IMG/VR virus record: IMGVR_UViG_3300002053_000010
Location: 1-35,787 of that record
Source: a virus
Direction: 5' to 3' (one strand)
DNA length: 35,787 nt
A model generated the notes under the pieces. It had not been told where the DNA came from. It searched no databases and saw only the letters and a program-made list of their open reading frames with translations. This document shows positions 1 through 33,427 of this stretch, piece after piece. Position numbers and translations under genes: made by a program. Numbering within the stretch: position 1 is the stretch's first letter; every line of letters begins with the position of its first letter.

Positions 1-104
1 CCAGCAAATGTATTTGCATAATATTGAGAATCTCCTATCGTCATTTTTAAATCGATATTGGCCTGTTGCCACCACTGTTGAAAAAGTGTTTGGCTTTGAC
101 GATA
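1..104. repeat. Terminal direct repeat copy A, identical to 35684-35787. Either a circular-assembly overlap or a short terminal redundancy.
   Basis: The first 104 nt (ccagcaaatgtatttgc...ggctttgacgata) match the last 104 nt of the window base for base. The portal reading frame runs straight through it. Confidence 0.95.
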
Positions 105-146
105 GTTTTCGTCCATCTCTTTTTTGAGAGAATAATCAAAGATCAT
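1..146 (-). CDS. Portal protein, 5-prime segment continuing across the circular junction (1-104 duplicates 35684-35787)
   Basis: The portal frame is still open at the window end. After circularisation it extends 34 codons to an in-frame ATG at 146-144 (MIFDYSLKKEMDENYRQSQTLFQQWWQQANIDLK-MTIGDSQYY...). That ATG directly follows the AGGCAAGAAAACCAA element. Which ATG is actually used (146 or 44/35727) is unresolved. Confidence 0.5.
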   Translation of the reverse strand, partial: MIFDYSLKKEMDENYRQSQTLFQQWWQQANIDLKMTIGDSQYYANTFA

Positions 147-161
147 TTGGTTTTCTTGCCT
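146..161 (-). promoter_or_regulatory. 16-mer AGGCAAGAAAACCAAA (sense), copy 1 of 3, abutting the candidate portal start
   Basis: The exact 16-mer also occurs at 7775-7790 and 33405-33420. Here its last A is the A of the ATG at 146. Confidence 0.6.
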
Positions 162-2560: not shown

Positions 2561-2963
2561 TATTTATTTTTTTTGGTGGATTTTTTCCATAATGAATGAC
2601 ATTTAAAGGAATTGTGCCACTATGTTCTATTTCTTGTTTCTCTTTTTGACCAAGCAAGTTCTTCCCAAGCCAAACAAGCATTGTTGCATTTCCTTCCATG
2701 GCAGATTCTATCTGCCTTCTTCTAAGGCTTTTCTTTAATCTAGCTCTTCCAAGCCTTAAAGAATCCATATATCTATTTTCAATTGTATCTTTGCTACAAT
2801 CAAGCAGTCTTGCTATTTCTTCGGTTATACATCCAATTGCTGCCAAATCTTCTATATCTTTCTCACAAAGTTGTAATTTAGGCCTTCCAACACCAGATTT
2901 ATTTTTTCTTTTTGGTTTCCCATCTTTTAAACTTCTTGATTTTATTTTTTGGCCTTTCTTCAT
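2553..2963 (-). CDS. terS: Terminase small subunit (putative), with an HTH
   Basis: 136 aa. It has a basic N-terminus, an HTH-like DIEDLAAIGCITEEIARLLDCSKDTI, and a GNATMLVWLGKNLLGQ motif typical of small terminases. It lies directly upstream of TerL and overlaps it. The SD is AGGGA, 5 nt before the ATG at 2963. Confidence 0.7.
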   Translation of the reverse strand: MKKGQKIKSRSLKDGKPKRKNKSGVGRPKLQLCEKDIEDLAAIGCITEEIARLLDCSKDTIENRYMDSLRLGRARLKKSLRRRQIESAMEGNATMLVWLGKNLLGQKEKQEIEHSGTIPLNVIHYGKNPPKKINNE

Positions 2964-3270
2964 CTTTTTCCCTATTTTTTAATTGTTCCTCTTTCCATTT
3001 TCTTTTTTCATATGGAACAAATATTTCTTTTAACTTGATTCCTTTTGGAAGAAGCTCTGTATTTATTTTATAGAGAACATAAGAACTATCGAATAATTCA
3101 TCTTCTTCTATTTCTTTCAATTTTTTCAAAGTTCCATCTTTTTTTATAGGTCCTTTTCTTTTAATATTTCCTATAAAATCAATAGCCTCTTTTTCTGACG
3201 GAAAAAATTTTTTAATGAGGTCGTATTGTGATCCAAACATAAAAAGGAAATAATCTGTAGATTCTGACAT
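2899..3270 (-). CDS. Hypothetical protein (123 aa), first gene of the packaging block
   Basis: The ATG at 3270 is preceded by the leader element AACCAAACATCGGAGaaacaccaATG. The 3-prime end overlaps terS by 65 nt in another frame. Confidence 0.65.
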   Translation of the reverse strand: MSESTDYFLFMFGSQYDLIKKFFPSEKEAIDFIGNIKRKGPIKKDGTLKKLKEIEEDELFDSSYVLYKINTELLPKGIKLKEIFVPYEKRKWKEEQLKNREKDEERPKNKIKKFKRWETKKKK

Positions 3271-3278
3271 TGGTGTTT

Positions 3279-3293
3279 CTCCGATGTTTGGTT
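3279..3293 (-). promoter_or_regulatory. Leader/RBS element copy (sense AACCAAACATCGGAG)
   Basis: It lies 8 nt upstream of the ATG at 3270 and immediately 3-prime of the hairpin at 3299-3351. Confidence 0.7.
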
Positions 3294-3351: not shown

Positions 3352-3738
3352 CTATTCTTCTTCTTTTTCAATTATATTTTCTACTTCTAGCAGCCTATTA
3401 AAAGGTTGTTTATATTTTTTTAAAAAGCACACAAATTCTATGACAAATCTTACAAAATATACAGGAGCGTCTTTTCCCAAATACTCAAAAGACAAAAAAG
3501 CAAGATAAGAAATATCATCAAGAATATCTGCCCAATCATCTTTTGAAACTGTATTAAATATTTGGAAAAGATTTTCTTTTTCAGCAAAAATATTTACACG
3601 TTTTAGGGGGTAAGCCCTAAATTCCTCTTGTCTCTCTCCCCTTGGCGAAAGCCAAGTTTTTTTTTCTTTATATGAAAACTCAACTGTGTTCTCATATTTT
3701 CCCGCCTCAAATTTAGCTGTCGGATATTTCGTTGTCAT
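3352..3738 (-). CDS. Hypothetical protein (128 aa)
   Basis: The ATG at 3738 shares one base with the recombinase stop (TAATG). No recognisable motifs. Confidence 0.7.
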   Translation of the reverse strand: MTTKYPTAKFEAGKYENTVEFSYKEKKTWLSPRGERQEEFRAYPLKRVNIFAEKENLFQIFNTVSKDDWADILDDISYLAFLSFEYLGKDAPVYFVRFVIEFVCFLKKYKQPFNRLLEVENIIEKEEE

Positions 3739-4850
3739 TATCCTACCAATTCAGCACATGAATTGTTAATAATACTCCCGGCTTCGTAATACCTCATTGC
3801 CGTTGAAACACTTTTGTGAGAGGTCATTTTCATAATGTCGCCAATAGGCTTTCCTTGTTTGGCACCCTCTGTAACAAATCCTCGGCGTAGTGAGTGGGCT
3901 GAAAATTGGTTTTCGTCATAGCCAGCTAGATTTGTTCGTTTCTTTACCATCCTTCTCACGTCATTTCCGGAGAGTGCGCCTCGAATATCTCCACTCTTCC
4001 CAACCGAACGGAACATTGCCCCTTTTTTTACGCCAGAAGCCTCTAGCCAGTCTCTTAACGCCTTGGCGGCCCTTCCTTTGATGGGCTTGTAATCGTCTTC
4101 CCCTGTTTTGTTGGTCTTCGACTCACATAGGTTGTATAGGTAGTCTCCTTCGGATGTCTCTGTGAGATTACACATATCAGCATCGGTTATCTCGCAACGT
4201 CGGCGCCCACCAGAAGAGAAAGCAAAGAGGAGGATGGCTTTATCTCTGACATCAATTAGACGTCCTTTACATGTCAAAAGCATGTCTTCCAGAATGTCTT
4301 TTGTTATTGCTTTTTTCTTTCGCCCCTTCCCTCCATACATCGTCGTAAATCTCTTTAGTAGACGCTTTACCTCTTTATCTCTGCATGGGTTATTTAACTT
4401 GTCGAGTTCAAGACAGACACTTAGTGAGGCTATGCGGCGTTTTATCGTTTCAAGAGAGTGAGTGCCTAGTTTTGACTTGTACCCTTGGTCAACAAGAATC
4501 TTATCAACCTCCGGGTTCATCTCCTCAATATGCTGAATGATGAAGTGTTTTAGGATTCCAACGGTTATCCTGTCTGTTTTAAAGTTGAATCCAATGACTG
4601 AAAGCCATGCTTGCCAATAGACAATGTCCCCGTTAAATGCCCTTTTAGTGTTTTCACTGGTGTAGTCCCTGATAACCTCAAGGCTTCTAACTGCACTGTC
4701 TTTTAAGAGAGTGTTTAACAACCTGGATTCGCCAAGCTTTACAGGTATATAGTTGTTCAAGTCTCTATCTTTGATAAGAGAAAAGGGCATAAAGCTGTGA
4801 GAGGGTTGAATAAGTGCTCCCTCTTTTTTTCTATTCTGTTTTTCCTTCAT
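3738..4850 (-). CDS. Tyrosine recombinase 1, Cre-like (370 aa)
   Basis: The C-terminal catalytic region has SGGRRRCEI (Arg I), AHSLRRGFVTE (H-x-x-R) and HKSVSTAMRYY (His/Tyr). Its layout resembles P1 Cre (WSGHSARVG...VMNYI). It aligns over its full length with ORF 12221-13213. It is visibly more GC-rich than its neighbours. Confidence 0.9.
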   Translation of the reverse strand: MKEKQNRKKEGALIQPSHSFMPFSLIKDRDLNNYIPVKLGESRLLNTLLKDSAVRSLEVIRDYTSENTKRAFNGDIVYWQAWLSVIGFNFKTDRITVGILKHFIIQHIEEMNPEVDKILVDQGYKSKLGTHSLETIKRRIASLSVCLELDKLNNPCRDKEVKRLLKRFTTMYGGKGRKKKAITKDILEDMLLTCKGRLIDVRDKAILLFAFSSGGRRRCEITDADMCNLTETSEGDYLYNLCESKTNKTGEDDYKPIKGRAAKALRDWLEASGVKKGAMFRSVGKSGDIRGALSGNDVRRMVKKRTNLAGYDENQFSAHSLRRGFVTEGAKQGKPIGDIMKMTSHKSVSTAMRYYEAGSIINNSCAELVG

Positions 4851-6055: not shown

Positions 6056-6203
6056 CTTTGTCTATTAAAAGAGTATTTTTTTCCCCTTTTTTCACAAATG
6101 GTTCTAATTTAAATTTATGACGTTTTGCCATACAAATATCCAATTGATGTTTTTTTATATCATATTTTTTTAATATTTCTTGTTTTGTAATAAAATTGCT
6201 CAT
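6009..6203 (-). CDS. Small protein (64 aa), possibly an excisionase-like DNA-binding protein
   Basis: The ATG at 6203 forms an ATGA overlap with the upstream stop. ITKQEILKKYDIKKHQL...LIDKDAFREWM has an Xis/AlpA-like flavour only. Confidence 0.45.
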   Translation of the reverse strand: MSNFITKQEILKKYDIKKHQLDICMAKRHKFKLEPFVKKGEKNTLLIDKDAFREWMEKYYEIYF

Positions 6204-7279
6204 GCACATTTTTCCTTTTTTATATTTGCCGAAAAATTGCTTATTTTTGGGAAAACTTGTGTCAATTTATATAAAAATTTATTAAGATCGTGCACCATTT
6301 CTTTATTTTCGTATTTGAATTCATATCCAGGATGACATGGGGATCCAACATCTATGAATAACGAATTGTTTCCTGCTGTTGTTGTTATAAAAATTTGATT
6401 TTTTCGCAAAAACTGCATAAACTCTTCTTCGAATTTTTTTGCAAAGTTTTTATTTTCATTTAGATGCGCGAGTTTTTCCAAAGATATTTCTTCTGGTTCT
6501 TTTAATTCTTGCTGGAGGCATGCGTTGACGAATGCCCCTGGATTTCTGACAGACATCCTTCTGGAATATGTTTTAAACGATTCTATTGCGAACATTACTT
6601 TTGTGCTTGGGTATTGAGAGAAGAATCGTTTATCTTTTTCGCTTAAGAAATCGCAGAATTTGAGTTGATCGTATACTTGAGGCGCCATTTTTTGTTTCCT
6701 GCATTTATTTTTTATGTTGTGGTTGATATTTGAGCATGTTTTATACAAATATGCTGGTATATTTATTATAATTTTTCCTTTTTTGAGTTCTAATAAAACG
6801 GCTTCTTTTGCTTTTTCTATAGTTTTTCTTGAAAATTTTTGTGAGAAGAAGATTTCCTCAAAGATTGGTAATTCTAATTTTTGGATTTTTTTGAACGATT
6901 GCGACTGCGTTCTTGAATCTTTTTGTACAGAAGATTCTAGATATCGTTCTTTTATTATTTTTTCCTTATAGTTCGTGTGACAATTTGCTGTTTCGGAGTA
7001 TAAAGGATTTATTTTATTTATGAACGAATCTTTAAGAAAATAGATGTTTGTTTTATTTGGTCTTTTGAAAGAACCAATTTCTCCTGAAAGTTCCTTTAGG
7101 TGTCTTATAACGGTTCTTCTGGATATATGGAGGTGTTCTGCTATTTTTCTTTGGGAGAAGAACATTATCTTAAATTTTCTGCAATTGTTGATCATGTAGA
7201 TCAAGATAGGACGTAATTTTTTGGGGATATTTTCTAAAAGAACTTGATATTTTTTCGGAGATAGATTATAAGTTAACAT
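6200..7279 (-). CDS. HTH DNA-binding protein, candidate replication initiator (359 aa)
   Basis: The N-terminal winged-HTH reads SQRKIAEHLHISRRTVIRHLKEL. It sits between the control region with the iteron-like array and rusA. The function is inferred from context only. Confidence 0.75.
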   Translation of the reverse strand: MLTYNLSPKKYQVLLENIPKKLRPILIYMINNCRKFKIMFFSQRKIAEHLHISRRTVIRHLKELSGEIGSFKRPNKTNIYFLKDSFINKINPLYSETANCHTNYKEKIIKERYLESSVQKDSRTQSQSFKKIQKLELPIFEEIFFSQKFSRKTIEKAKEAVLLELKKGKIIINIPAYLYKTCSNINHNIKNKCRKQKMAPQVYDQLKFCDFLSEKDKRFFSQYPSTKVMFAIESFKTYSRRMSVRNPGAFVNACLQQELKEPEEISLEKLAHLNENKNFAKKFEEEFMQFLRKNQIFITTTAGNNSLFIDVGSPCHPGYEFKYENKEMVHDLNKFLYKLTQVFPKISNFSANIKKEKCA

Positions 7280-7533
7280 GCGGAGATCCTTTGGTTATCC
7301 TTTTTGGTTATCCTTGTGATTTCCCATGTGATTTCCCTTGTGGTTTCCTTTGGGTTAACATGTGATTTCCTTTTGGCTATCCTTTGGGTTAATTTGTTTG
7401 TCCTAACAATTGGCGCGTATTTAAACATTGTTTCTGCTTCAGTGCCTTTGTTTGGGGCTTCACAAAAATTTATTATTTTCTGGGTCTGGGCCTTTTGGTC
7501 CAGATTTTTTTTTGCTTTTTCTTTTTTTTTCAT
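7273..7533 (-). CDS. Small, very basic protein (86 aa), uncertain; its 3-prime third is made of the 12-bp repeats
   Basis: The ATG at 7533 has a strong SD (AAGGAGGGaaaaATG). The ORF-track start at 7596 is a TTG. Low-complexity Lys-rich sequence, and the repeat-encoded tail (REIT WEIT RITK), make the coding status doubtful. Confidence 0.4.
   Translation of the reverse strand: MKKKEKAKKNLDQKAQTQKIINFCEAPNKGTEAETMFKYAPIVRTNKLTQRIAKRKSHVNPKETTREITWEITRITKKDNQRISAC
7283..7390. repeat. Iteron-like tandem array: about 9 units of 10-12 bp, consensus G[G/A]TT[A/T]TCC[C/T]TTG[T/G]
   Basis: Units read off the sequence: gagatcctttg, gttatccttttt, ggttatccttgt, gatttcccatgt, gatttcccttgt, ggtttcctttgg, gttaacatgt, gatttccttttg, gctatcctttgg. 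The array lies directly upstream of the Rep-like gene start at 7279. Confidence 0.75.
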
Positions 7534-7601
7534 TTTTCCCTCCTTTTTATATTTACCCTTTTGCCTTTTTTTGTTATGTTCCTTTTGTCTTTTCAATCGA
7601 T

Positions 7602-7630
7602 TATGTACATCTTTATGAAATCCGGGTCAA
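7602..7630 (-). promoter_or_regulatory. Sigma70-like promoter candidate for the minus-strand replication/early operon
   Basis: On the sense strand, TTGACC (7630-7625), a 17-nt spacer, then TACATA (7607-7602). It lies about 65 nt upstream of the SD-supported ATG at 7533. Confidence 0.4.
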
Positions 7631-7686
7631 GTTTTTTTGATCAAGATTTCATTCGAATCCTCCTTTTTATATTGTTATTTTCCTTT

Positions 7687-7715
7687 GCCGCCTACAATAG
7701 GCGGCCTTTTTGTTT
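7687..7715 (+). terminator. Intrinsic terminator, plus-strand orientation only
   Basis: GCCGCC tacaata GGCGGC followed by CTTTTTGTTTG. On the minus strand there is no U-tract after the hairpin. Confidence 0.55.
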
Positions 7716-7742
7716 GCAAAAATTTTTGTTTTTTTGTATGTT
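7714..7742 (+). promoter_or_regulatory. Sigma70-like promoter candidate reading toward gene 7826-8263
   Basis: TTGCAA (7714-7719), a 17-nt spacer, then TATGTT (7737-7742). Confidence 0.35.
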
Positions 7743-7766
7743 TTTTTATCATTGGTGGCCTTTGGC

Positions 7767-7790
7767 CTCCGATGTTTGGTTTTCTTGCCT
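7767..7790 (-). promoter_or_regulatory. Full-length leader element (sense AGGCAAGAAAACCAAACATCGGAGG)
   Basis: This is the only copy that carries both halves, the 16-mer AGGCAAGAAAACCAAA and ACCAAACATCGGAGG. A 25-codon mini-ORF follows (ATG at 7752). The hairpin at 7787-7806 overlaps its 5-prime end. Confidence 0.7.
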
Positions 7791-7812
7791 TTCTTGATAG
7801 AAAGGCTTTTTT
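7787..7812 (+). terminator. Intrinsic terminator or attenuator in the leader of gene 7826-8263
   Basis: GCCTTTCT tgat AGAAAGGC followed by TTTTTT. It ends 4 nt before the SD AGAGGG of the ATG at 7826 and lies downstream of the promoter candidate at 7714-7742. Confidence 0.55.
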
Positions 7813-7825
7813 ATAGAGGGTTTTT

Positions 7826-8263
7826 ATGAGATGTTTAAAAATTTTTATAGTTTTATTTTTTCCTTTATGTGTGTTTGGGTCGTTTTGTGTCCCAAAATGT
7901 GAAGAAAGTCTTTCAAAGTATCATTATAAGCAAGGAAAAGTCGCATTTAAACAAGCAAAAAAGATTTGTAGAAATATAGAAAAAAGATATCAAGAAAGAA
8001 TGAAAAAAAGTTTTGAATTAACGGCGGTTTCTTTTTTTCTTGCTGGCGAAAAAACTTATTGTGAATATATTGACAGGCTTTTAAATATGATGCGCGGATT
8101 TCGATTGTATGAGATTAAAGAATGGAGTGACATAAAATCTTTTTTTTACATCGCAAAACAACATTTTCTTCTTGCAGAGAGTTTTGAGACAGATATTTCT
8201 ATTCCACAACAAAAAATGTTTTTGTTCGAACTCTTCCCGGAAATAGAAGCGAAAGTGCACTAA
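7826..8263 (+). CDS. Secreted or membrane-anchored hypothetical protein (145 aa), moron-like
   Basis: The SD is AGAGGGtttttATG. The N-terminal signal-like segment reads MRCLKIFIVLFFPLCVFGSFC. It is oriented against the surrounding minus-strand genes and converges on the XRE gene with a 65-nt overlap. Confidence 0.65.
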   Translation: MRCLKIFIVLFFPLCVFGSFCVPKCEESLSKYHYKQGKVAFKQAKKICRNIEKRYQERMKKSFELTAVSFFLAGEKTYCEYIDRLLNMMRGFRLYEIKEWSDIKSFFYIAKQHFLLAESFETDISIPQQKMFLFELFPEIEAKVH

Positions 8264-8429
8264 TTTCATAATTTGTATTCTCTTCTATTTTTTTTGCCAT
8301 TGATATGCTCATGGGCATTTTCCCATTTATTACTTTTGAAAAATAATGTTTATGTACTCCGCATTTTTTTGCAAAATCTCTCGCTTTTATCTTATTTTTC
8401 TTTAACCAGTCTTTGACAATATGTGCCAC
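8199..8429 (-). CDS. XRE/Cro-CI family HTH transcriptional regulator (76 aa)
   Basis: The HTH reads IKARDFAKKCGVHKHYFSKVINGK. It uses a GTG start at 8429 with a strong SD (GGAGGAAGGcgGTG). It is divergent from the plus-strand early block. Confidence 0.8.
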   Translation of the reverse strand: MAHIVKDWLKKNKIKARDFAKKCGVHKHYFSKVINGKMPMSISMAKKIEENTNYEISALSLLFPGRVRTKTFFVVE

Positions 8430-8500
8430 CGCCTTCCTCCTGTTTTTGTTTTTATTTTATAGAGATATGAAAAAATATGCCATCTTTTTTATTTTTTTTC

Positions 8501-8529
8501 TTGTAAGAAATTTCAAAAAGATGATAAAT
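8501..8529 (+). promoter_or_regulatory. Weak sigma70-like promoter candidate for the plus-strand early block
   Basis: TTGTAA (8501-8506), then 16-18 nt to GATAAA/ATAAAT/TAAATT. This would place the leader element near the 5-prime end of the mRNA. Confidence 0.3.
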
Positions 8530-8547
8530 TATGGACATAAACCAAAA

Positions 8548-8562
8548 ACCAAACGTCGGAGG
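8548..8562 (+). promoter_or_regulatory. Leader/RBS element copy (ACCAAACGTCGGAGG)
   Basis: It is followed by agag and the ATG at 8567, and preceded by a partial duplication (AAACCAAAAACCAAAC). Confidence 0.7.
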
Positions 8563-8566
8563 AGAG

Positions 8567-8887
8567 ATGGCATATCAATATTATTCAAATTATGAAATAG
8601 AAGAATGCTTTTGTACAGAGCATGATCATGAAAGGAATAAAATGGCTTTAAAAGATCTTGTAGATGCCATTTATAACGTAGAAAAAGATGAAGATTTCAA
8701 CATTGAATATATAGACGATCAAATTAGAACATTAGCATCTGATTATGGTGTTTCTGTTCCAGAAAAAATTCCGTTGATGTTTTCTAGTCACTCTATAAAA
8801 AAGATAATAGAAACTTCATCAAATATTGCCATAGAGGGATTTTCAATATATTCAGGAAACAAAGAAGCTACTTGCTTCACAAATTAA
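8567..8887 (+). CDS. Hypothetical protein (106 aa)
   Basis: The start was re-set to the ATG at 8567 (MAYQYYSNYE...) because the leader/SD element sits just upstream. The ORF-track start at 8531 lies upstream of that SD. Confidence 0.7.
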   Translation: MAYQYYSNYEIEECFCTEHDHERNKMALKDLVDAIYNVEKDEDFNIEYIDDQIRTLASDYGVSVPEKIPLMFSSHSIKKIIETSSNIAIEGFSIYSGNKEATCFTN

Positions 8888-8897
8888 GGTCATTGCT

Positions 8898-8910
8898 AAC
8901 CAAATGGAGG
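8898..8910 (+). promoter_or_regulatory. Shortened leader element variant (AACCAAA-TGGAGG) in front of recT
   Basis: AACCAAATGGAGGacattATG. It is 3 nt shorter than the full core, and the SD GGAGG lies 5 nt before the ATG at 8916. Confidence 0.45.
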
Positions 8911-8915: not shown

Positions 8916-9632
8916 ATGGAAAAAACACAAGAAATTTCGATTCAAAAAAATGGAAAGAAATCAATCATTCAAGACATTGAAGAGATAAAAAACGTTACAA
9001 AAGCCCTTCTTGAGACAAAACATTATCAAAAAATTGGAGGAGAGGGCGTTTTTGCTATTGTTCAAAAAGCAAAATCCTTGAATATAGATCCAATAGGTGC
9101 ATTAAATGGAGATTTATATTTTGTTCAAGGAAAGGTAGAAATGAGTAGCCAGATGATGTTAAGTCTAATTAGACAAGCTGGACATTCTGTAACGATGGAT
9201 CAAAAAAGCTCTGACACATATGTTATTTTGCATGGAAAAAGAAAAGACAATCAAGATACATGGTCTGTATCTTTTAGTATTGAAGATGCAAAAAAACAAG
9301 GAATATATAGAGGGAATTGGGAAAAGATGCCAAAAACTATGTGTACATGGAGATGTATTTCTATGCTTGGAAGATTTTTGTTTCCAGATGTAATTAAAGG
9401 ATGTTATGTGGAAGGAGAAATACAAGAGATAATAGATACTCCAATAGAAGAAGTGAAAGAAGAGACAATTTCTAAAGAACAAGTAAAAGAATTAGAAGAT
9501 TTAATGAAAGATGATGAAGAAAAAGCAAAAAACATTTTAGATGTTCTTGAAAATGGATATGGAATAACAGAACTAAAGGATATTCCTGTTTCAATATATG
9601 AGAGAATAATAAATATACTATTAAAAAAATAA
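8916..9632 (+). CDS. recT: RecT-family single-strand annealing protein
   Basis: GGEGVFAIVQKAKSLNIDP, VEMSSQMMLSLIRQAGH and MPKTMCTWRCISMLGRFLFPDVIKGCYVEGE fit RecT conserved blocks. It is followed by a YqaJ exonuclease, the classic pair. The start was set to the SD-supported ATG at 8916. Confidence 0.85.
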   Translation: MEKTQEISIQKNGKKSIIQDIEEIKNVTKALLETKHYQKIGGEGVFAIVQKAKSLNIDPIGALNGDLYFVQGKVEMSSQMMLSLIRQAGHSVTMDQKSSDTYVILHGKRKDNQDTWSVSFSIEDAKKQGIYRGNWEKMPKTMCTWRCISMLGRFLFPDVIKGCYVEGEIQEIIDTPIEEVKEETISKEQVKELEDLMKDDEEKAKNILDVLENGYGITELKDIPVSIYERIINILLKK

Positions 9633-9828: not shown

Positions 9829-9855
9829 GTGAATCGAAAGATAAATAAAAAATTA

Positions 9856-9870
9856 ACCAAACATCGGAGG
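9856..9870 (+). promoter_or_regulatory. Leader/RBS element copy (ACCAAACATCGGAGG)
   Basis: It is followed by aagatc and the ATG at 9877. Confidence 0.7.
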
Positions 9871-9876: not shown

Positions 9877-10719
9877 ATGAAACAAGGCACAAAAGAATGG
9901 CTAGAATTTAGAAAAAATAAAATTGGAGCAAGTGATGCTCCAATAATAATGGAGAAATCTCCATGGAAGACTCCATATCAGCTTTGGCTTGATAAACTTG
10001 GATTGTCCAAAAATAAAGAAACAGAAGGAATGCGCCGAGGGAAAAGACTAGAACCAATAGCTTCTCAGAAATTTACAGAAAAAACGGGAATACAAATATT
10101 CCCAAGAACTATAGTTCACAAAGAAAAAGAATGGATGATTGCTTCATTAGACGGAATGGATTTGTATAAAAAGATTTTAGTAGAAATAAAGTGTCCTAAT
10201 AAAGAAGACCATGAACTAGCAAAATGTGGAAAGATTCCTGAGAAATATTTTCCACAGTTACAACATCAGCTAGAGGTCGCTGGATTGGGTTCTGGATATT
10301 ATTTCAGTTTTGATGGAGAAGATGGAACGATTATTGAATTTGAAAAAGATGAAAATTTTGTAAAAGAACTTGTGAAAAAAGAAGAGATTTTTCTAGAATG
10401 TATATTAACATTTACGCCACCAAGGCTAACATCAAAAGATCGTATAAAACAAACATCTGAGCAATGGAAATATTTAGCAGAAGAATGGATAAAAATCAAA
10501 AAAGAATTGGAAGAAAAAGAAGAAAGAAAAAAATGTATTGAAGAAATGCTTTTTGATATTTGTGGAGAAACAAGCGCAGAGGGAGGCGGAATAAGTATTA
10601 CAAATTATTTTAGAAGAGGAAATGTTGAATATAAAAATATTCCTGAGCTTAAAAATGTTGATTTAGAAAAATATAGAAAGCAGGGATCATTTATTAAAAG
10701 AATTTCAATTTATGGATAA
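9877..10719 (+). CDS. YqaJ-type (lambda Exo-like, PD-(D/E)XK) recombination exonuclease
   Basis: GTKEWLEFRKNKIGASDAPIIM, PYQLWLDKLG, GKRLEP, ASLDGMD, LVEIKCP and YFPQLQHQLEV fit YqaJ motifs. The ORF-track start at 9829 is a GTG upstream of the SD. Confidence 0.88.
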   Translation: MKQGTKEWLEFRKNKIGASDAPIIMEKSPWKTPYQLWLDKLGLSKNKETEGMRRGKRLEPIASQKFTEKTGIQIFPRTIVHKEKEWMIASLDGMDLYKKILVEIKCPNKEDHELAKCGKIPEKYFPQLQHQLEVAGLGSGYYFSFDGEDGTIIEFEKDENFVKELVKKEEIFLECILTFTPPRLTSKDRIKQTSEQWKYLAEEWIKIKKELEEKEERKKCIEEMLFDICGETSAEGGGISITNYFRRGNVEYKNIPELKNVDLEKYRKQGSFIKRISIYG

Positions 10720-12220: not shown

Positions 12221-13213
12221 TTAAAATAGATCCGCTGCAGGATTGTTAAGATTAGATGCAGACTTGTAATAATTCATAGCGATTGTCAAGCTCTTATGTC
12301 CTGTCATATCCATGATGTCTCTGATATTAATATTTCTTCTGCCACCCTCAGTTACAAAACCGTATCTTAAACTGTGTGCAGAAAAAAACTTTTCATCATA
12401 TCCAGCCATTTTAGCTCTTTTTTTGACTATACGGTTGATTTCTTGTGGAGTAAGACCCAAACTACTTATTGACCCGTTTTTTCGTATAGATCTAAATAAA
12501 GGGCCTTTACGTTGATTTAGTGTTTTTAGCCACTTATTTATGCATTCAAAAGCTTTTCCTTTTATAGGAACAAACATTCCTTTTCCTTCTTGGTCAGTTT
12601 TGCTCTTTTCTATCTTATACATACATTCATTTCCCATCATTTTTATATTTTCTATTTTTGCTGAAGATATTTCAGATCTTCTTCTTCCACCAGAACAAAA
12701 ACCAAATAATAAAAGAGCCTTATCTCTTAAATCTATTATCTTATCATCTGAACATGTATCTATCATATCTAAAAGCATTTCTTTTAAGATGGCTTGTCGT
12801 TTTGAAAGTGTAATATTTTTTCTTCTTAATCGTTTTAAAAGTGTAGAAATTTCAACATCATTTAAAGGAAGTTCTATATTCCATTGTTTTAGATAAGTCT
12901 TTAAATTATAAAGCTTTGTCATCATTGTTGAGAATTTCCATTGATAAAGATTTTTCTTAATTCCTTTTTTTATTAATTCATCCTCAACAATTTTTGGCAT
13001 CTCTTCAACATGATGAGAAATGAATGCAATGATATTTTTTTTGAATGACATTTCTTCAAGTTTTATTCCAACAGCTTCACACCAACCAATGAAATATTTA
13101 ACACTAATGTCTATTGATCTTTTTGTATTTTCTGGAATGTAATCTGTTATAACCTTTTTTGACCATTCAGAAATTTTTGAATGATCCAATATTTTCTTTA
13201 AATCTTTTTTCAT
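12221..13213 (-). CDS. Tyrosine recombinase 2, Cre-like (330 aa), paralog of 3738-4850
   Basis: SGGRRRSEI, AHSLRYGFVTE and HKSLTIAMNYY are present. The N-terminal region (ENTKRS...YFIGWCEAVG) also parallels recombinase 1. It is a stand-alone gene downstream of a 300-bp non-coding region. Confidence 0.9.
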   Translation of the reverse strand: MKKDLKKILDHSKISEWSKKVITDYIPENTKRSIDISVKYFIGWCEAVGIKLEEMSFKKNIIAFISHHVEEMPKIVEDELIKKGIKKNLYQWKFSTMMTKLYNLKTYLKQWNIELPLNDVEISTLLKRLRRKNITLSKRQAILKEMLLDMIDTCSDDKIIDLRDKALLLFGFCSGGRRRSEISSAKIENIKMMGNECMYKIEKSKTDQEGKGMFVPIKGKAFECINKWLKTLNQRKGPLFRSIRKNGSISSLGLTPQEINRIVKKRAKMAGYDEKFFSAHSLRYGFVTEGGRRNINIRDIMDMTGHKSLTIAMNYYKSASNLNNPAADLF

Positions 13214-14287: not shown

Positions 14288-16882
14288 TTAATTCGACATT
14301 GCTCTATATATTACTGTGAAATTAAAAGCAGAATCTGCATTTGTAATACCAGCTGGAGTTAATGGGGCTCCTCCTGCCGGATTATAAGCATGAAGCCTGA
14401 AATAATTTGCTCCAGTTGCCTGATTATATGGATAATATTGAAGACGATTTGCTACGCCACCGTCAAGAAAAGAAAATCTTCCTGGAGGATTATAATAATT
14501 CCCCAAAACGTCATTAAATGGAGGATGAATTAACAAATTGTTAGCTCCAACGCCATTACCATTGCAATTATTTCCAGACCAAAAGAAAAAAACATCTCCA
14601 CTTGGTCTTAAACTATAAATAGATGCTTCATTTTGAAATGTTGGCATTGTTCCACCACCACCTTCTTGAGAAAAATATGATCCAGCTACTGCACCATTAT
14701 GTCCTGGTGGATAAGAAAAAATGCCGCTATCTTTATAGTCTCCAATTCCACCAGTATTTCCAAAAGCTAAAACGGTCCAATCATCGCCTGCATTTTTTGA
14801 CATTACAAATGATCCTACTAAAACGACAGGATTTGTATCCCAATCACCAACAGTGATAGAATCATCTAATGCCCACATACTATATTGTAAGTCTGCAATA
14901 GCGCTACTTGGTTTTCCAATAGACGTCGTACAACTTCTTCTTCCTCTTTCTCTCATAATCATAAATGTTACTGCTGTTTCAGCATCATTTAAAACTGCGT
15001 ATAAGAAAAATGGCATTGGCTCACCCCATGCTCTTCCTGTTGTGGTACCAAAAAGATTTCCTGCAATATCAGAAGAACCAGACGCATTGTCATCAAAAGA
15101 ATAATTTGAAGTTACTGGAAAAGTAAGAAATGTATTTCTTGAAAGTGCACTTTTTATTCTTATAAATCCTCTATTTGTAGAAGAAAGATTATTTCCATCT
15201 GCTGCATGAAGAGTAAGTGTTCCTCCGGAATATGTCATACCAAAATTGGAATGACCTTCTTGATAAAATGAAACTTGATCCAATATTAAATCTGGATTGG
15301 AATATTGTCTTAATAATGTGCTTGTCGTTATATCTCCAACAAGTGGTGCTGCTGCTGCTGTATTTCCTATTAATAATTCTCCATCTCCATTTGGTTCTAT
15401 TATTTTAAATTCAATTTGATTAGATGCTGGAGTTCCTGTAGTTTCTATAAATTGCTGCGCCGCTGTTCCAATTAAATTTATATTCCCTCCACCATCTGGG
15501 GGAACAGCAAGACCTACATCTCCAGTTAAAGAATCAAGTGCGGCACCACCACCGATTAAAGAAACATAGCCATCCGCATCGACTGTGAAGTGAGTATCAT
15601 TAAAGGAACATACTCCCGCATCATTTTTATTCCCCGGGGCCCCTGTTCTGTCTGATGCAACTTGAACTTCAATATTAAATACATTTAAAGCGCGAGAATG
15701 TGTCTCTAGTGGAACAGAATGGGCAGCAACTACAGCTCCTTGTGCTGTAATTAATCCTGTTGCATCTGGGTCAACTGGATCTGTTCCAGGAGCAGTATTT
15801 GCATCTACTCCAATTTGATCTATTATAGCCCCGCCTGCAATTTGAACATAACCATCCGCATCAACTGTGAAAGTTGTGTCATCAAAAGAACATATTCCTG
15901 CGTCGTTTGTATCTCCTGGAGCTCCAGTAATAGCTGCCGAAACTTGTACATTTAATGCCTCTGTATTTGCAACTCCACTATCTACAAAATAAATTGGCTT
16001 TGCATGTGTTGCATTTGCTACTACTATCCCTGTTAAATTAATATTTCCCGCTGCATCAGCTCCAATTGCAACTGCATCATCTCCAGTTAAAGAATCTATT
16101 GCAACAGCGCCTCCTATTAATTGAACATAACCGTCTGCATCTACTACAAACATCGTATCATCAAAAGAACATATCCCAGCGTCATTAGTATTCCCAGGTG
16201 CTCCAGTTATTGCAGAAGAAACTTGTAATTCAATATTAAATGCATTTGCTGCTCTTGAATGAGTTTCTACAGGAACTGCATGAGCAACAATGGCAGCCCC
16301 TGCTATTGTTATCTGTCCTGCTCCATCTGGCAATACTGGGTCTGTTCCTGGAGGAGTATTCGCATCTACATTAATTTGATCAACTGCAATGCCCCCACCC
16401 GCTAATTGGACAAAACCATTCGCATCGACTGTAAACATAGCACTATCAAATGAACATACCCCGACATTTCCAGCATCAGAGCCAACAGCAGCAGTAGATA
16501 TTTGTACGTCTAAATCAATTGTATTTGCAACAGCAGCACTTGAATAAAATGGTGTTGGATTCGTTCCAAAGGCCACAGTATTACAATCAACATCTATAAT
16601 ACCTACATTTGGAACAGCAATGTTTCCATCGTCTGCTCTAAGTTCTGTAACAGATCCAAAACCACCACCTGTTAATAAAACCCAATGTGCATTTCCATTT
16701 ATGATATCTACTAATATCCATTCGTCATTTGTTGTGTTGTCTCTCCAAATAGATTGAATTGGATATTTTCTATCTAAAACTGTTGGAGCACGTGGTGCAT
16801 CATATGTTGGAATTAATGCATCTCTTTGACCTGAATATTCAAGGGGATTTTGTTGAATCGGCCTTTCGCCAAATTGAACCAT
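14288..16882 (-). CDS. Tail fiber / receptor-binding protein A (864 aa)
   Basis: It is preceded by the leader element. The N-terminal anchor motif is RAPTVLDRKYPIQSIWRDNTTNDEWIL...GNAHW, shared with 19279-21864. It has Gly/Ala/Thr-rich repeated modules (DAG[IV]CSF[DN]D..F.VDADGYV) and a distinct C-terminal region of about 390 aa. Confidence 0.85.
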   Translation of the reverse strand: MVQFGERPIQQNPLEYSGQRDALIPTYDAPRAPTVLDRKYPIQSIWRDNTTNDEWILVDIINGNAHWVLLTGGGFGSVTELRADDGNIAVPNVGIIDVDCNTVAFGTNPTPFYSSAAVANTIDLDVQISTAAVGSDAGNVGVCSFDSAMFTVDANGFVQLAGGGIAVDQINVDANTPPGTDPVLPDGAGQITIAGAAIVAHAVPVETHSRAANAFNIELQVSSAITGAPGNTNDAGICSFDDTMFVVDADGYVQLIGGAVAIDSLTGDDAVAIGADAAGNINLTGIVVANATHAKPIYFVDSGVANTEALNVQVSAAITGAPGDTNDAGICSFDDTTFTVDADGYVQIAGGAIIDQIGVDANTAPGTDPVDPDATGLITAQGAVVAAHSVPLETHSRALNVFNIEVQVASDRTGAPGNKNDAGVCSFNDTHFTVDADGYVSLIGGGAALDSLTGDVGLAVPPDGGGNINLIGTAAQQFIETTGTPASNQIEFKIIEPNGDGELLIGNTAAAAPLVGDITTSTLLRQYSNPDLILDQVSFYQEGHSNFGMTYSGGTLTLHAADGNNLSSTNRGFIRIKSALSRNTFLTFPVTSNYSFDDNASGSSDIAGNLFGTTTGRAWGEPMPFFLYAVLNDAETAVTFMIMRERGRRSCTTSIGKPSSAIADLQYSMWALDDSITVGDWDTNPVVLVGSFVMSKNAGDDWTVLAFGNTGGIGDYKDSGIFSYPPGHNGAVAGSYFSQEGGGGTMPTFQNEASIYSLRPSGDVFFFWSGNNCNGNGVGANNLLIHPPFNDVLGNYYNPPGRFSFLDGGVANRLQYYPYNQATGANYFRLHAYNPAGGAPLTPAGITNADSAFNFTVIYRAMSN
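15467..16525 (-). repeat. Internal protein-level repeats in fiber A: four 45-aa modules and a duplication of about 120 aa
   Basis: The modules end in VGVCSFDSAMFTVDANGFVQLAGGG, AGICSFDDTMFVVDADGYVQLIGGA, AGICSFDDTTFTVDADGYVQIAGGA and AGVCSFNDTHFTVDADGYVSLIGGG. Residues about 165-290 parallel residues about 352-472. Confidence 0.8.
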
Positions 16883-16888: not shown

Positions 16889-16903
16889 CTCCGACGTTTG
16901 GTT
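16889..16903 (-). promoter_or_regulatory. Leader/RBS element copy (sense AACCAAACGTCGGAG)
   Basis: It is followed by aaaaaa and the ATG at 16882. A TATAAT lies 20 nt upstream on the sense strand (16926-16921). Confidence 0.7.
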
Positions 16904-16927
16904 TTTTTAATTTAAAATAAAATTATA

Positions 16928-19173: not shown

Positions 19174-19228
19174 TTTTTACTCCTTACTTTACTATTTGCT
19201 TAGATCATGTCACTCCTATGGGTGATAA

Positions 19229-19254
19229 GGGGGAGTTAAAAAATTAATTCCCCC
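19229..19254 (-). terminator. Hairpin after the tailspike gene (GGGGGA, 14-nt loop, TCCCCC)
   Basis: A GC-rich 6-bp stem. The T-run is on the plus-strand side only, so terminator function on the coding strand is uncertain. Confidence 0.3.
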
Positions 19255-19278
19255 TTTTTCATTTATCATTAAAATATA

Positions 19279-21864
19279 TTATTGTAAACCACAAGCAAGC
19301 GATACCAAATGGATTGCAGCAGGAGCACCTCCAGCAGCAAATAAATGATGAATAAATGGAATAACAACATCAGCATTATCAAATGTCATTGCTTGTTCAT
19401 TACTTAGAGCGGCTCCATCAAGAAGATATGAAACAACTCCAGCGGCTGAAACGTTTAATCTAATAGTATGTGTTTGTCCATCCGTCCAAGCATCTGTAGA
19501 ATTAACATAAGTCCATCCAGTACCATTTAGATTTTTACCAGAAATTACTGTGTCTGCATTAGTTGTGGCATGTAATCCTATAACAGCTGCATCAGTATAG
19601 TTTGCAAAAGCTCCATTAGGTGCGCCTTGTAATCTAAAACCTATCCATAATGGATCGGAAGTTCCACAATCAGCAACTGTGAATCTAGCCTCAATAAAGA
19701 AAGCCGGACTTGTTCCAATAGTGAATAAGAATTTAGAAGAATTTTGGTGTCCCCAATAATATTCAGCACCTTCACTATTTGTTAAATCTAGAGAAACTAA
19801 CAAACCAGCATTTTCTAATCTTGGAGCAATAATAGTTTGTCCAGCACCCAAGATAAATTGTTCCATTGTATGACCATCTTGTAGATACATAATATTGTAA
19901 TCTCCAGTAGCACCAGTTGGTGCAGCTCCTGTATTAGCACGAGATTGTAAAATTGGACATACATTAATTTGAGGAACATACATGTTAGTTACATTTATAT
20001 TTCTTCCTGTGATATCTCCATAAGAGTCTATCGTTGAAACTGATGCATTTGAATTATTTCTTATTCCAAAAGTATTGGCACCAATATCATCTCCGAGATC
20101 AATATAAAAATCATTTCCAGCCACACAATTTACTGTTACAGAAGATCCATCAGATACAATAGTTGATTCATCCCACAACCTAATATCAGCTGTGGTATAA
20201 GCAACGCCCGCATTAGCTGGAGTTGTATTATATAAATCAAGTCCATATAACCAATCTGCAATTGCTTGTGTTCCTTGAGCAACACCCAATGCTGCTCTTC
20301 CAGCAGTACCAGCTCCAGCACCAAGACGAGTAGCAACAACACCATACCCATATGCATTAAGAGGTGTAGTATATTCAACAACAGATCCAATACCAGCATA
20401 AATACCTGTTAAAGGAACTGCAGCCGCATCGTCTGTCATATAATATCCTTTAACTCCAAAAGCATATGTTTGAGGAATATCAGCAGCGTCTGTTTCATGA
20501 ATTAAAATTGACCCTTCAACTCCAGCGGCAGTACTAGCTATTACAGAACCATCTACTTGAGTAAGAGTTCCCAAAACACCTAAATCTAATAATGAATTAG
20601 AACCAGCAGCTAAAGTTAATGATCCATCTACAGCTCTCGGTTCATGATTACCATCACCAGCAGATACAGAAAGATTTCCTCTAATACTTGCTAAATAAGA
20701 TGCTCCAGTTGCAGTTGGATCATCAGCAAAACATTGAATAATACCACCATCAGCTGCAAAAGCATTTACACGATAGGTACTATCTCCAGAGGTAACTTTA
20801 GAGAATTTTCCTTCTGCTACATATGCTCTAGTTAATGTTGCTGCTAATGCTGCATTACTTAAAAATTCAACATTTGCAAGTGTAACAGCACCAGCACCAG
20901 CACCAGTAATACATGGATTTGCAGAAGATGTAATAGTTACATTACTAAGACCTACTACTCCAGCAGAACCTTGTGCAAGAGCTGCATTAGCACCTGTTGT
21001 TAAAGTACTTTCTCTTATAGCTAAAGCTGTCGTTCCAGCTAAAGTTATTGTTCCACCAATTGTACTTCCTTGAGTAATAGAAGCAGCACATGCGCCAGAC
21101 AAATTACTTGCACAACTTACACGAGATCCAATAATAACTAATGTTCCACCAACTTGAGTAAGTACATTAGCTCCTGCTCCTACTAAAGAATCAGAAATAA
21201 TAACAGTTGAAGCAGCAATTCTTACACATCCATCTGCAGTAGAAGTTGTATGACAATCATAAATATCAACAGGACCTGTCCATGAAGCACAGTCTACTAC
21301 ATAACCATTCGTACAATTAAATGTACAATTTGTAAAACTTAGTCTTGCAGTACCAGCAGCAGCTGATGTAACGATATCTGTTGCAGATGTTAACTGTAAA
21401 TCTCTAAAGAAAACAGCACCTGTAGCAGGAGGTGTATGAACACCAGTTATAATAGAATATGCTCCACATCCTGTAATAATAAGATTATCGTAAAGAGTTA
21501 AGTTTTCTGTATAAGTCCCAGGTCTTACATAAACTTCTGCATTTGTAGTTCCAGATGCTTGTATTGCATTTATAGCAGCTTGGATAGTTGTAAAATCTCC
21601 AGTGCCATCAGCATCTACTACATATTTACTCATTGGAGCATTACCACCAGCACTTTGAGAAACTGGTTCCCAATTAGCCGCATTTCCAGCTATTGATGTT
21701 AATACCCATACATTATTTGCTATTCTGTCTATCCAGATAGTTCCTATCCGGTGTCCTAAATCGAGTGCAGTTGGTGCCCGTTGAGCCTTTATCACATTTG
21801 GCGGCTCAGGAGCTTCTACACCTACATACGATAAGGCGTTTTGTCCACCAACGAATTCCGACAT
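19279..21864 (-). CDS. Tailspike / receptor-binding protein C (861 aa) with a beta-helix, depolymerase-like central domain
   Basis: It is preceded by the leader element. The N-terminal anchor is RAPTALDLGHRIGTIWIDRIANNVWVL...GNAANW. DGTGDFTTIQAAINAIQASG..VYVRPGTYTENLTL..NLIITG is a pectin-lyase-fold entry motif, followed by long Ala/Gly/Thr/Ser beta-helix-like sequence. The C-terminal region of about 200 aa looks lectin/ConA-like (weak). Confidence 0.85.
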   Translation of the reverse strand: MSEFVGGQNALSYVGVEAPEPPNVIKAQRAPTALDLGHRIGTIWIDRIANNVWVLTSIAGNAANWEPVSQSAGGNAPMSKYVVDADGTGDFTTIQAAINAIQASGTTNAEVYVRPGTYTENLTLYDNLIITGCGAYSIITGVHTPPATGAVFFRDLQLTSATDIVTSAAAGTARLSFTNCTFNCTNGYVVDCASWTGPVDIYDCHTTSTADGCVRIAASTVIISDSLVGAGANVLTQVGGTLVIIGSRVSCASNLSGACAASITQGSTIGGTITLAGTTALAIRESTLTTGANAALAQGSAGVVGLSNVTITSSANPCITGAGAGAVTLANVEFLSNAALAATLTRAYVAEGKFSKVTSGDSTYRVNAFAADGGIIQCFADDPTATGASYLASIRGNLSVSAGDGNHEPRAVDGSLTLAAGSNSLLDLGVLGTLTQVDGSVIASTAAGVEGSILIHETDAADIPQTYAFGVKGYYMTDDAAAVPLTGIYAGIGSVVEYTTPLNAYGYGVVATRLGAGAGTAGRAALGVAQGTQAIADWLYGLDLYNTTPANAGVAYTTADIRLWDESTIVSDGSSVTVNCVAGNDFYIDLGDDIGANTFGIRNNSNASVSTIDSYGDITGRNINVTNMYVPQINVCPILQSRANTGAAPTGATGDYNIMYLQDGHTMEQFILGAGQTIIAPRLENAGLLVSLDLTNSEGAEYYWGHQNSSKFLFTIGTSPAFFIEARFTVADCGTSDPLWIGFRLQGAPNGAFANYTDAAVIGLHATTNADTVISGKNLNGTGWTYVNSTDAWTDGQTHTIRLNVSAAGVVSYLLDGAALSNEQAMTFDNADVVIPFIHHLFAAGGAPAAIHLVSLACGLQ

Positions 21865-21872
21865 TTTTTTTC

Positions 21873-21887
21873 CTCCGACGTTTGGTT
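21873..21887 (-). promoter_or_regulatory. Leader/RBS element copy (sense AACCAAACGTCGGAGG)
   Basis: It is followed by aaaaaaa and the ATG at 21864. Confidence 0.7.
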
Positions 21888-21951
21888 TTTATTGACTAAA
21901 TATTTCTCATTTTTTACTCTTTAAGTATAAACAACTTAAAAAGGAGTTTTT

Positions 21952-30290: not shown

Positions 30291-30299
30291 TATCTTATT

Positions 30300-30324: not shown

Positions 30325-30342
30325 CTCAAATATAATAAGCTA

Positions 30343-33420: not shown

Positions 33421-33427
33421 TTATAAA

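Follow-up and report, generated by a model that had tools for sequence, protein, structure and literature searches.

The window analyzed here was a 35,787-nucleotide (nt) stretch of viral DNA (IMG/VR record IMGVR_UViG_3300002053_000010, positions 1 to 35,787), and we focused on a short repeated sequence found at the translation starts of several of its genes and on a copy of this sequence located in the control region at positions 7766 to 7792. The first and last 104 bases of the window (1 to 104 and 35684 to 35787) were identical and independent contigs crossed the junction; the window therefore represented the whole genome, which is circular (or terminally redundant) and 35,683 bp long. The same phage, at 98 to 100% identity, was assembled independently in the ENA, JGI, and Logan data sets, for which the source samples were ENA ERZ27275891 and ERZ27275859, JGI 3300028897, and SRR5248174. 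The genome had a GC content of 33.5%, no tRNA gene was found in it, and its gene map contained 46 open reading frames (ORFs) in three blocks. The short rightward early block carried a 106-amino-acid (aa) gene of no assigned family, the genes for RecT and a RecE/YqaJ-like exonuclease, and small ORFs. The long leftward block carried an orphan Rep-like gene with iterons, genes for RusA, a tyrosine recombinase, a TerS-like protein, and an intein-containing TerL, a P22-type portal gene, head genes, tail genes, the genes for two large receptor-binding proteins, and small terminal ORFs. The third block contained a second integrase gene with its own strong promoter.

The initial annotation of the window held that the repeated sequence was not random and that it was longer than a Shine-Dalgarno site requires, and our counts agreed on both points. 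When up to two mismatches were allowed, ACCAAACRTCGGAG matched eight times, compared to a maximum of two matches in 100 shuffles. Six of the matches were exact and one had a single mismatch, and these seven copies in 35.7 kb compared to 0.17 expected from the shuffles. The exact copies were located at 3279-3292(-), 7767-7780(-), 8548-8561(+), 9856-9869(+), 16889-16902(-), and 21873-21886(-), and the one-mismatch copy was located at 30277-30290(-), all within 1 nt of the coordinates originally given. The two-mismatch match at 10448-10461 was within the exonuclease ORF and looked like a chance match.

Six of the copies, which we refer to as type A sites, had a 15-base motif, AACCAAACRTCGGAG, in the sense orientation, with GGAG 5 to 8 nt upstream of the ATG of same-strand ORFs of 106 to 864 aa. 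The flanks of the copies were dissimilar up to the motif edges, indicating that the copies were not duplicated segments. As previously described, the genes included early ones (the first rightward gene and the exonuclease gene) and late ones (packaging, head, and the two receptor-binding protein genes). The earlier count of at least seven genes fused to the motif, always 4 to 10 nt before the start codon, held for the six type A genes but not for the 7767 copy, which lacked a credible gene: the ATG of a 25-codon ORF was 14 nt away from its GGAG.

On the + strand, AAAACCAAACGTCGGAGG at 8545 to 8562 preceded the 106-aa gene that begins the rightward operon, with GGAG 5 nt (GGAGG 4 nt) upstream of ATG 8567, and AACCAAACATCGGAGG at 9855 to 9870 had its GGAG 7 nt upstream of ATG 9877 of the RecE/YqaJ-like exonuclease gene, a start that matched the stored gene call. 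The other four sites were on the - strand. Specifically, AACCAAACATCGGAG at 3279 to 3293 was 8 nt upstream of ATG 3270 of a 123-aa ORF preceding the TerS-like and TerL genes, and a long-loop hairpin (GCGGGATC...GATCCCGC) was located immediately upstream of this site. AAAACCAAACGTCGGAG at 16889 to 16905 was 6 nt upstream of ATG 16882 of a called gene for an 864-aa receptor-binding-type protein. A second AAAACCAAACGTCGGAGG site, at 21872 to 21889, had its GGAG 8 nt upstream of ATG 21864 of the gene for an 861-aa tailspike-like protein with a pectinesterase-like stretch. Finally, AATCAAACGTCGGAG at 30277 to 30291 was 7 nt upstream of ATG 30269 of a 127-aa gene and 14 nt past the stem of a sense-strand intrinsic terminator (30305-30327). 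The public-contig gene calls differed from ours at two of these loci. They started the gene behind the 8548 copy at 8531, which would place the motif within the ORF; given the GGAGG located 4 nt upstream, we preferred the 8567 start for the 106-aa gene. They also lacked the 123-aa ORF. This ORF (2899-3270, - strand) overlapped the TerS-like ORF (2553-2963, - strand) by 65 nt, with both products lysine-rich in the overlap, and it may be a genuine gene with an overlap or a small terminase fused by frameshifting.

Next, the reverse complement of the 7766-7792 copy was tested for pairing against the start of each gene, and the scores revealed two further genes with a related site that the initial annotation had missed. 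These type B sites corresponded to AGGCAAGAAAACCAAA and matched the part of the 7767 copy that had been bracketed in the initial annotation, AGGCAAGAAA. One of them, AGGCAAGAAAACCAAATG at 144 to 161 (- strand), included ATG 146 of the portal gene (P22_portal), which crossed the circular junction and whose start matched the stored gene calls; 16 nt of this site matched the 7766-7792 copy exactly. The other, AAAGGCAAGAAAACCAAATG at 33403 to 33422 (- strand), included ATG 33405 of a 129-aa head-module gene; 18 nt matched exactly and 20 nt could pair when two G-U pairs were included. The start of the 129-aa gene agreed with that of its closest homologues (L001 to L004), and most other relatives started about 9 codons upstream. 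We estimated that the chance expectation for the type B matches was about 1e-3 or less. Types A and B each conserved 15 to 18 nt, with 7 to 9 nt in common; the overlap was only AACCAAA, and for four of the six type A sites it reached up to AAAACCAAA. All eight sites were in the mRNA-sense orientation and were at most 26 nt upstream of a start codon or overlapped it, and such windows covered about 2% of strand positions.

Because the type B sites matched its other half, the 7766-7792 copy was a composite "master." Its sequence, AAAGGCAAGAAAACCAAACATCGGAGG, was the union of types A and B, and it was the sole copy holding both halves. It was also the only copy that preceded no credible gene, and the public-contig gene calls placed no gene between 7534 and 7825. 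The master was identical in a strain variant (L285) whose adjoining iteron array differed.

The reverse complement of the master, CCTCCGATGTTTGGTTTTCTTGCCTTT (7766-7792, + strand), ran into an intrinsic terminator at 7787 to 7812 that was detected in a terminator scan. The terminator consisted of a perfect 8-bp stem, GCCTTTCT-TGAT-AGAAAGGC, followed by TTTTTT, and it terminated only the + strand because AAGAAAA followed the stem-loop on the - strand. In the predicted fold of the + strand, the region from 7748 to 7812 formed a candidate small antisense RNA of about 55 to 65 nt with a 5' hairpin at 7750 to 7775 (CAUUGG-U-GGCC-UUU-GGCC-U-CCGAUG, with the inner GGCC/GGCC at 7757 to 7767), a single-stranded stretch, UUUGGUUUUCUU (7775-7786), between the two hairpins, and the terminator. 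The folding energy was -26.2 kcal/mol (z -5.5). The - strand fold of the same region was 4.6 kcal/mol less stable because a U-G pair became an A-C mismatch on that strand. The initial annotation had treated 7767-7790 as another leader; since this copy was gene-less, contained both halves, and adjoined an opposite-strand terminator, it was more likely to be a regulator than a target.

A 145-aa ORF with a signal-peptide-like N-terminus (MRCLKIFIVLFFPLC...) was called at 7826 to 8263 on the + strand, and its product was an orphan among 5.8 billion proteins. Because this ORF started only 13 nt past the T-tract of the terminator, its promoter was most simply placed upstream of the master, and we infer that the antisense sequence is transcribed. 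The best promoter-like sequence that we could read by eye in this position was a weak one, TTGCAA-N17-TATGTT (7714-7742, + strand; 8 of 12 matches), with an alternative -10 sequence, TATCAT, at 7747 to 7752. A search of the whole window against Rfam 15 at gathering thresholds yielded no match, and relaxing the threshold to E values of up to 10 for 7250-8600 yielded no C4-type match. Thus, neither its sequence nor its structure placed the candidate RNA in the C4 family.

The exposed UUUGGUUUUCUU stretch was complementary to the core common to all eight targets. When the cost of unfolding both partners was included, the net dimer energies predicted for the eight targets ranged from -14 to -27 kcal/mol, compared to -3.5 to -13.6 kcal/mol for a further seven gene starts, namely recT and six controls. 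For the type A sites, the values were -17.6 to -17.7 kcal/mol (3279), -21.8 to -24.6 kcal/mol (8545), -17.9 to -22.9 kcal/mol (9855), -19.4 to -27.2 kcal/mol (16889), -14.4 to -22.3 kcal/mol (21872), and -15.2 to -22.0 kcal/mol (30277). For the type B sites, they were -19.0 to -20.5 kcal/mol (144) and -14.9 to -15.9 kcal/mol (33403). Two target positions were variable: position R (A or G) faced a U, and the C-to-U change of the 30277 copy faced a G. Hence, wobble pairing was kept at both.

A shortened form of the motif had also been reported in front of recT. However, this sequence, TAACCAAATGGAGG at 8897 to 8910 (+ strand), had only AACCAAA and GGAGG in common with type A, and its pairing energy (-4.9 to -7.8 kcal/mol) was inside the range of the control genes; we consider it doubtful even as a weak site. 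Two other sequences resembled type A. The leader of the XRE gene, AAAAACAAAAACAGGAGGA (8435-8453, - strand), resembled a type A motif that had diverged (14 of 19 positions identical) and had an intermediate pairing energy of -9.8 kcal/mol with the short form of the candidate RNA. A partial copy, AAAACCAAATATCGGG, at 33566 to 33581 (- strand) was identical to type A at 14 of 16 positions, with both differences keeping G-U pairing, and was located inside an 86-aa gene (33428-33688), 122 nt past its start.

With moderate confidence, we propose that the 7766-7792 copy forms the core of an antisense RNA of about 60 nt that would pair over 15 to 20 nt with eight translation-initiation regions. In this model, the U-rich seed UUUGGUUUUCUU would nucleate on the AAAACCAAA core common to the targets, and the duplex would then zip to 15 to 20 bp. 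In the six type A mRNAs the duplex would mask the Shine-Dalgarno sequence GGAG(G), and in the two type B mRNAs it would mask the start codon, so ribosome binding would be blocked at both types of site. A single protein-binding site would not explain why each type conserved 15 to 18 nt when only 7 to 9 nt were common to both.

The eight targets were the first rightward early gene, the exonuclease gene, the gene that opens the packaging block, the portal gene, the head-module gene, the gene after the capsid terminator, and both receptor-binding protein genes, and all eight were lytic-cycle genes. The genes for the Rep-like protein, RusA, and the recombinase, which were on the same transcriptional strand, carried no site. 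The RNA and the downstream gene for the 145-aa signal-peptide protein may share a transcript. From the lytic targets, the site-free replication and maintenance genes, and this possible co-transcription, we infer the direction and timing of the regulation; namely, the RNA would keep leaky lytic translation silent in the lysogenic or carrier state and would act like an RNA repressor. Leftward transcription across the master would generate a perfectly complementary decoy that could relieve the block on induction. The Rep-like protein with its iterons, the two recombinases, and the presence of only a 76-aa XRE protein in the switch region fit RNA silencing in a lysogenic or plasmid-like state.

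Two type A copies were 6 to 14 nt past hairpins (one of which was a clear terminator), and the 8548 copy was about 12 to 17 nt past a sigma-70-like -10 box. This argued against any fixed relation to transcription starts, in line with the earlier statement that the motif did not look like a simple temporal promoter. In addition, promoter-like matches were no more common than in shuffles, and the distances to putative promoters were variable. A promoter for a phage RNA polymerase or sigma factor could account for the phage specificity of the motif, which is a property of T7-type promoters. Yet no RNA polymerase or sigma factor was recognized with PHROGs or Pfam, a transcript starting within the motif would lack or barely contain the Shine-Dalgarno sequence, and the motif preceded both early and late genes. 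The motif could instead be a generic, extended host context of the ribosome-binding site (RBS), as its canonical Shine-Dalgarno core might suggest. Taken together, these two explanations were extremely improbable in our judgment, and the evidence against the second one came from the rest of the genome and from relatives of the phage.

Within the window, 38 of the 46 genes used other RBSs, mostly of the plain AGGAG type. The relatives that we checked comprised 53 capsid loci (75 to 87% aa identity), 25 terminase loci, and 4 exonuclease loci in IMG/VR, plus 4 distinct phage contigs (7 loci) with exonuclease homologues, or about 90 loci in all. No copy of the motif was found in the capsid, terminase, or exonuclease-linked relatives. 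At orthologous starts, the 127-aa gene had plain Shine-Dalgarno sites in about 45 relatives, the tailspike orthologue in the closest relative (L001) had a plain AGGAGG, and the portal and 129-aa genes had ordinary Shine-Dalgarno sites. Relatives that lacked the motif and had plain Shine-Dalgarno sites at orthologous starts indicated that the motif was not generic host context, so the test proposed for this in the initial annotation favored the motif. An exact-pattern scan of IMG/VR returned 38 single matches at chance level and no contig with multiple copies. The corresponding metagenome scan, for which the pattern was too short to discriminate, returned single matches among the at least 120 matches listed, and only the strain variant L285 was informative. 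In 185,579 species genomes, a search with a 19-mer only gave 3 matches, which were chance-like. Extended pairing with the 3' end of 16S rRNA was also rejected on inspection, as the CRUC located 5' of GGAGG was not complementary to the usual ...CCUCCUUUCU tail. We noted that AACCAAACAUC was complementary at 10 of 11 positions to GAUGUUGGGUU, a conserved 16S stretch; this match was judged unlikely to be meaningful.

When the relatives were searched for other clusters of at least three start-associated repeats, none was found except in L097, a distant relative with a TerL that was 53% identical. This contig reused (A)AAACAGGAGAACC(AAA)ATG at five or six gene starts, with the cassette located at 3874-3892, 4207-4225, 7649-7667, 9362-9380, and 18507. 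In the parts of this contig that were inspected, no copy of ACAGGAGAACC(AAA)ATG was gene-less or antisense. It looked like reuse of a strong RBS rather than a parallel system.

The ordinary Shine-Dalgarno sites at orthologous starts suggested that the motif was installed recently, and this bears on a further explanation, namely that the sites are relics of copying and pasting. Here, a portable RBS cassette or module-boundary sequence would have been spread by recombination or gene conversion, and the master would be a recombinant at AACCAAA with a type B left part and a type A right part. The phage encodes RecT and an exonuclease, the copies were near-perfectly identical, the sub-variants with A and G at position R suggested duplication lineages, and the composite could have formed by microhomology recombination. 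On the other hand, no other phage in IMG/VR carried multiple copies of the cassette (the matches were single, and the roughly 90 related loci had none), and the flanks that diverged up to the motif edges indicated that no larger module was copied. Moreover, neutral copies would have decayed, and strict placement at translation starts is left unexplained. We view a purely historical origin of this kind as quite unlikely.

A closer described analogue was found in Cluster K mycobacteriophages, and the earlier statement that no described system resembled the motif was therefore too strong. These phages carry start-associated sequences (SAS), which are 13-bp asymmetric elements, GGGATAGGAGCCC, present in 11 to 19 copies per genome and located 3 to 7 bp before start codons (Pope et al. 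2011, PMC3203893). The authors left undecided whether host or phage RNA or protein recognizes the sites (PMC3203893), and the functional role of SAS was still awaiting experimental verification in 2025 (PMC12699233). Like SAS, the repeat described here was asymmetric with a Shine-Dalgarno core, was located a few nucleotides upstream of the starts of a subset of unrelated genes, had one orientation to the genes, and occurred mostly in the larger upstream gaps; SAS are absent from the host genome, and the present motif was likewise not host-generic. In both cases there was also an odd copy, since K1 phages have one SAS in reverse orientation and away from a gene start. The differences were as follows. 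The sequences were distinct (GGGATAGGAGCCC compared to AACCAAACRTCGGAG), and SAS belong to high-GC actinophages, whereas the phage described here had a GC content of 33.5%. SAS occur in 11 to 19 copies that are confined to the non-structural arm; here there were 6 + 2 sites that included portal, head-module, and receptor-binding genes. SAS are conserved across the cluster, whereas the present motif was confined to one phage. Finally, the present phage had a second site type and a composite master beside a terminator, an arrangement that yields a concrete antisense-RNA hypothesis.

This likeness supports a reading in which the AACCAAAC motif is a sense element of the SAS type. In the mRNA, a protein of phage or host origin would read it, or the ribosome would do so as an A/C-rich enhancer, and the element would boost or gate the translation of a gene subset; the 7767 copy would then be a ninth, decayed copy. 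The anatomy matched that of SAS, which are about 13 bp and asymmetric, have a Shine-Dalgarno core and one orientation, and occupy larger gaps (PMC3203893). Furthermore, A/C-rich leaders were common in this phage group, as illustrated by the XRE leader AAAAACAAAAACAGGAGGA, the leaders of the L001 portal gene and 129-aa-gene homologue, and the L097 sequence ACAGGAGAACC(AAA)ATG. We nevertheless considered a sense element unlikely. It leaves unexplained the 15 to 18 identical nucleotides of each type with only AACCAAA in common, the gene-less copy that unites both halves, and the opposite-strand terminator of that copy. In addition, no RNA-binding protein family was recognized among the annotated genes, and many ORFs were unannotated.

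In the SAS phage Anaya, 16 sense copies and one reverse copy (59870-59882 in the record; 39871-39883 in L316) were present. The reverse copy was located in a 385-bp gap between gp96 and gp97 and placed an anti-SAS/anti-Shine-Dalgarno sequence, CCUCCUAUCC, in the 10-nt hairpin loop of the transcribed strand, adjoining a 16-bp hairpin (fold z -4.3). This resembled the arrangement around the master. However, TM4 (K2) and Pixie (K3) were not reported to have a reverse copy, so the likeness was only a lead.

The SAS report contrasts its elements with the stoperators of phage L5 (PMC3203893), which offer another possible parallel. L5 stoperators, the sites of gp71, are asymmetric, about 13 bp long, phage-specific, oriented with transcription, and present in many copies in short intergenic regions, and they silence the prophage globally. 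By analogy, the copies described here might be DNA sites for a phage repressor (e.g., the 76-aa XRE protein at 8199-8429) that blocks the polymerase in an orientation-dependent manner, and the control-region copy would be the primary operator. The multiple asymmetric, intergenic, phage-specific copies with one orientation to transcription, one of them in the control region, agreed with this idea. The comparison fails at the point where stoperators, as protein sites on DNA, are untied to Shine-Dalgarno sequences or starts; the present sites were joined to translation signals and had complementarity to a putative RNA, and a DNA roadblock needs no fixed fusion to GGAG and ATG. Type B also had only 7 to 9 nt in common with type A, and no copy overlapped a predicted -35 or -10 box. 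The XRE-early promoter region had inverted repeats of its own (CATCTTTTT / AAAAAGATG), which are more typical of operators for helix-turn-helix dimers. A stoperator-like function was, in our view, very unlikely. The initial annotation had further suggested that the motif core and the iterons were bound by one DNA-binding protein. The match was limited to 7 to 8 nt (TAACCAAA) in two iteron units, and this hint was weak because AACCAAA occurred 20 times in the genome compared to about 8 expected.

Several observations weigh against the antisense RNA that we propose. Everything rests on one genome, as the other public copies were 98 to 100% identical to it; the Rep-like and 145-aa neighbors of the master were orphans; and no relative, among about 90 loci, carried the system. 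The best promoter-like site upstream of the master, with its 8 of 12 matches, was below the threshold of the promoter scan. Part of the antisense sequence was sequestered in the candidate RNA, as CCUCCGAUG can sit in the 5' stem and GCCUUU in the terminator stem. Six of the eight targets shared their DNA strand with the master, which could also be read as a ninth sense copy. Wobble compatibility concerned two variable positions only, and four of the six type A sites carried a weaker G-U pair. Finally, perfect trans targets of 15 to 20 nt are unusual for bacterial small RNAs and suggest a copy-and-paste origin rather than selection for pairing.

The surroundings of the master contained further signals. 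The Rep-like protein (359 aa; 6200-7279, - strand) was an orphan, and the iteron array at 7283 to 7392 was the only region that differed in strain variant L285 (520-625), in which units were replaced and insertions and deletions were present; the flanks, including the candidate small RNA, were identical. An 86-aa ORF (7273-7533, - strand) crossed the iterons. Two more + strand intrinsic terminators, at 7482-7516 and 7687-7710, had no + strand ORF and were in antisense orientation to the leftward Rep operon, opposite its leader and 5' part, and two + strand promoter-like sites, TTAACA-N17-TATCCT, were located within the iterons. By analogy with plasmids, these + strand signals may belong to counter-transcripts that control replication. 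The genome also encoded two tyrosine recombinases (3738-4850 and 12221-13213, both - strand) in addition to the Rep-like orphan with iterons, and the phage may persist as a plasmid prophage. The window's best sigma-70-like promoter, TGGACA-N18-TATAAT (13291-13262), preceded the 330-aa integrase gene.

Elsewhere in the leftward block, the two receptor-binding proteins (14288-16882 and 19279-21864, both - strand), whose genes both carried type A sites, had only an N-terminal stretch of about 58 aa in common (40% identity), and the 864-aa gene contained internal repeats with a DNA identity of about 72 to 75%. A hairpin with a 13-bp stem (AAGGGGGAGTTAA...TTAATTCCCCCTT) at 19227 to 19256, in the gap that separates the tailspike gene from its leftward neighbor, scored as a + strand terminator within the - strand operon. 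TerL (796 aa; 170-2560, - strand) had an intein-like insertion with a weak match to Pfam Intein_splicing, and in most relatives the protein was about 430 aa and aligned to TerL in two pieces. In the case of the host, no relatives of the capsid protein were found in the 185,579 species genomes, and the nearest cultured phages, which infect Bacillus megaterium, had capsid identities of about 27 to 28%. A 49%-identical exonuclease homologue was labeled as originating from a Verrucomicrobia metagenome-assembled genome, which was too distant to indicate a host.

Phage RNAs that act on their own mRNAs offer the nearest functional comparison for the candidate RNA. In phages P1/P7, the antisense RNA c4 occludes an RBS and determines heteroimmunity (PMC12197685), and in P4, the CI RNA base-pairs with two sites of the genome that encodes it (PMC4825925). 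The candidate RNA resembles both in being a phage RNA with trans complementarity, in silico here, to the phage's own mRNAs and in its proposed role of keeping lytic functions off. As in the case of c4, the complementarity lies in the RBS region and the specificity is restricted to the phage, and P1 is also a plasmid prophage. P4 CI, by comparison, acts via transcription termination rather than RBS occlusion. The action of c4 and CI is confined to one operon, and each is generated by processing of its target's transcript. The candidate RNA would differ from them in having eight dispersed targets, near-perfect pairing over 15 to 20 nt, and a terminator-defined end, and it had no Rfam sequence or structure match to the C4 family (c4, CI, and IsrK), even at relaxed thresholds. 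A second group of phage RNAs includes VpdS of VP882, which affects phage and host mRNAs (PMC12197685). Like VpdS, DicF (Qin), and PreS (lambda), the RNA predicted here would be small and terminator-ended, with an exposed seed for sequences near translation starts. VpdS, DicF, and PreS use short, imperfect seeds and have mainly host targets, whereas the eight near-perfect targets described here were in the phage's own genome.

Current understanding of how phages control lysis and lysogeny centers on DNA-binding repressors, and RNA-based immunity is known from only a few cases (P1/P7 c4 and P4 CI), each of which concerns one operon. More tentatively than the pairing itself, we suggest the possibility that one phage RNA of about 60 nt is a genome-wide repressor that clamps the Shine-Dalgarno sequence or start codon of eight dispersed lytic genes and is thus a post-transcriptional counterpart of stoperators; the same logic, in which start-associated repeats are combined with a single antisense copy presented by a structured RNA, might explain the SAS of some mycobacteriophages. 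If this is true, a single small RNA that silences translation globally across early, packaging, head, and tail-fiber genes would represent a different design for such control, and it would provide the first testable mechanism for start-associated repeats, the function of which has been open since 2011. If it works, a regulator of about 60 nt combined with 15-nt tags would also constitute a compact, orthogonal switch for the translation of multiple genes.

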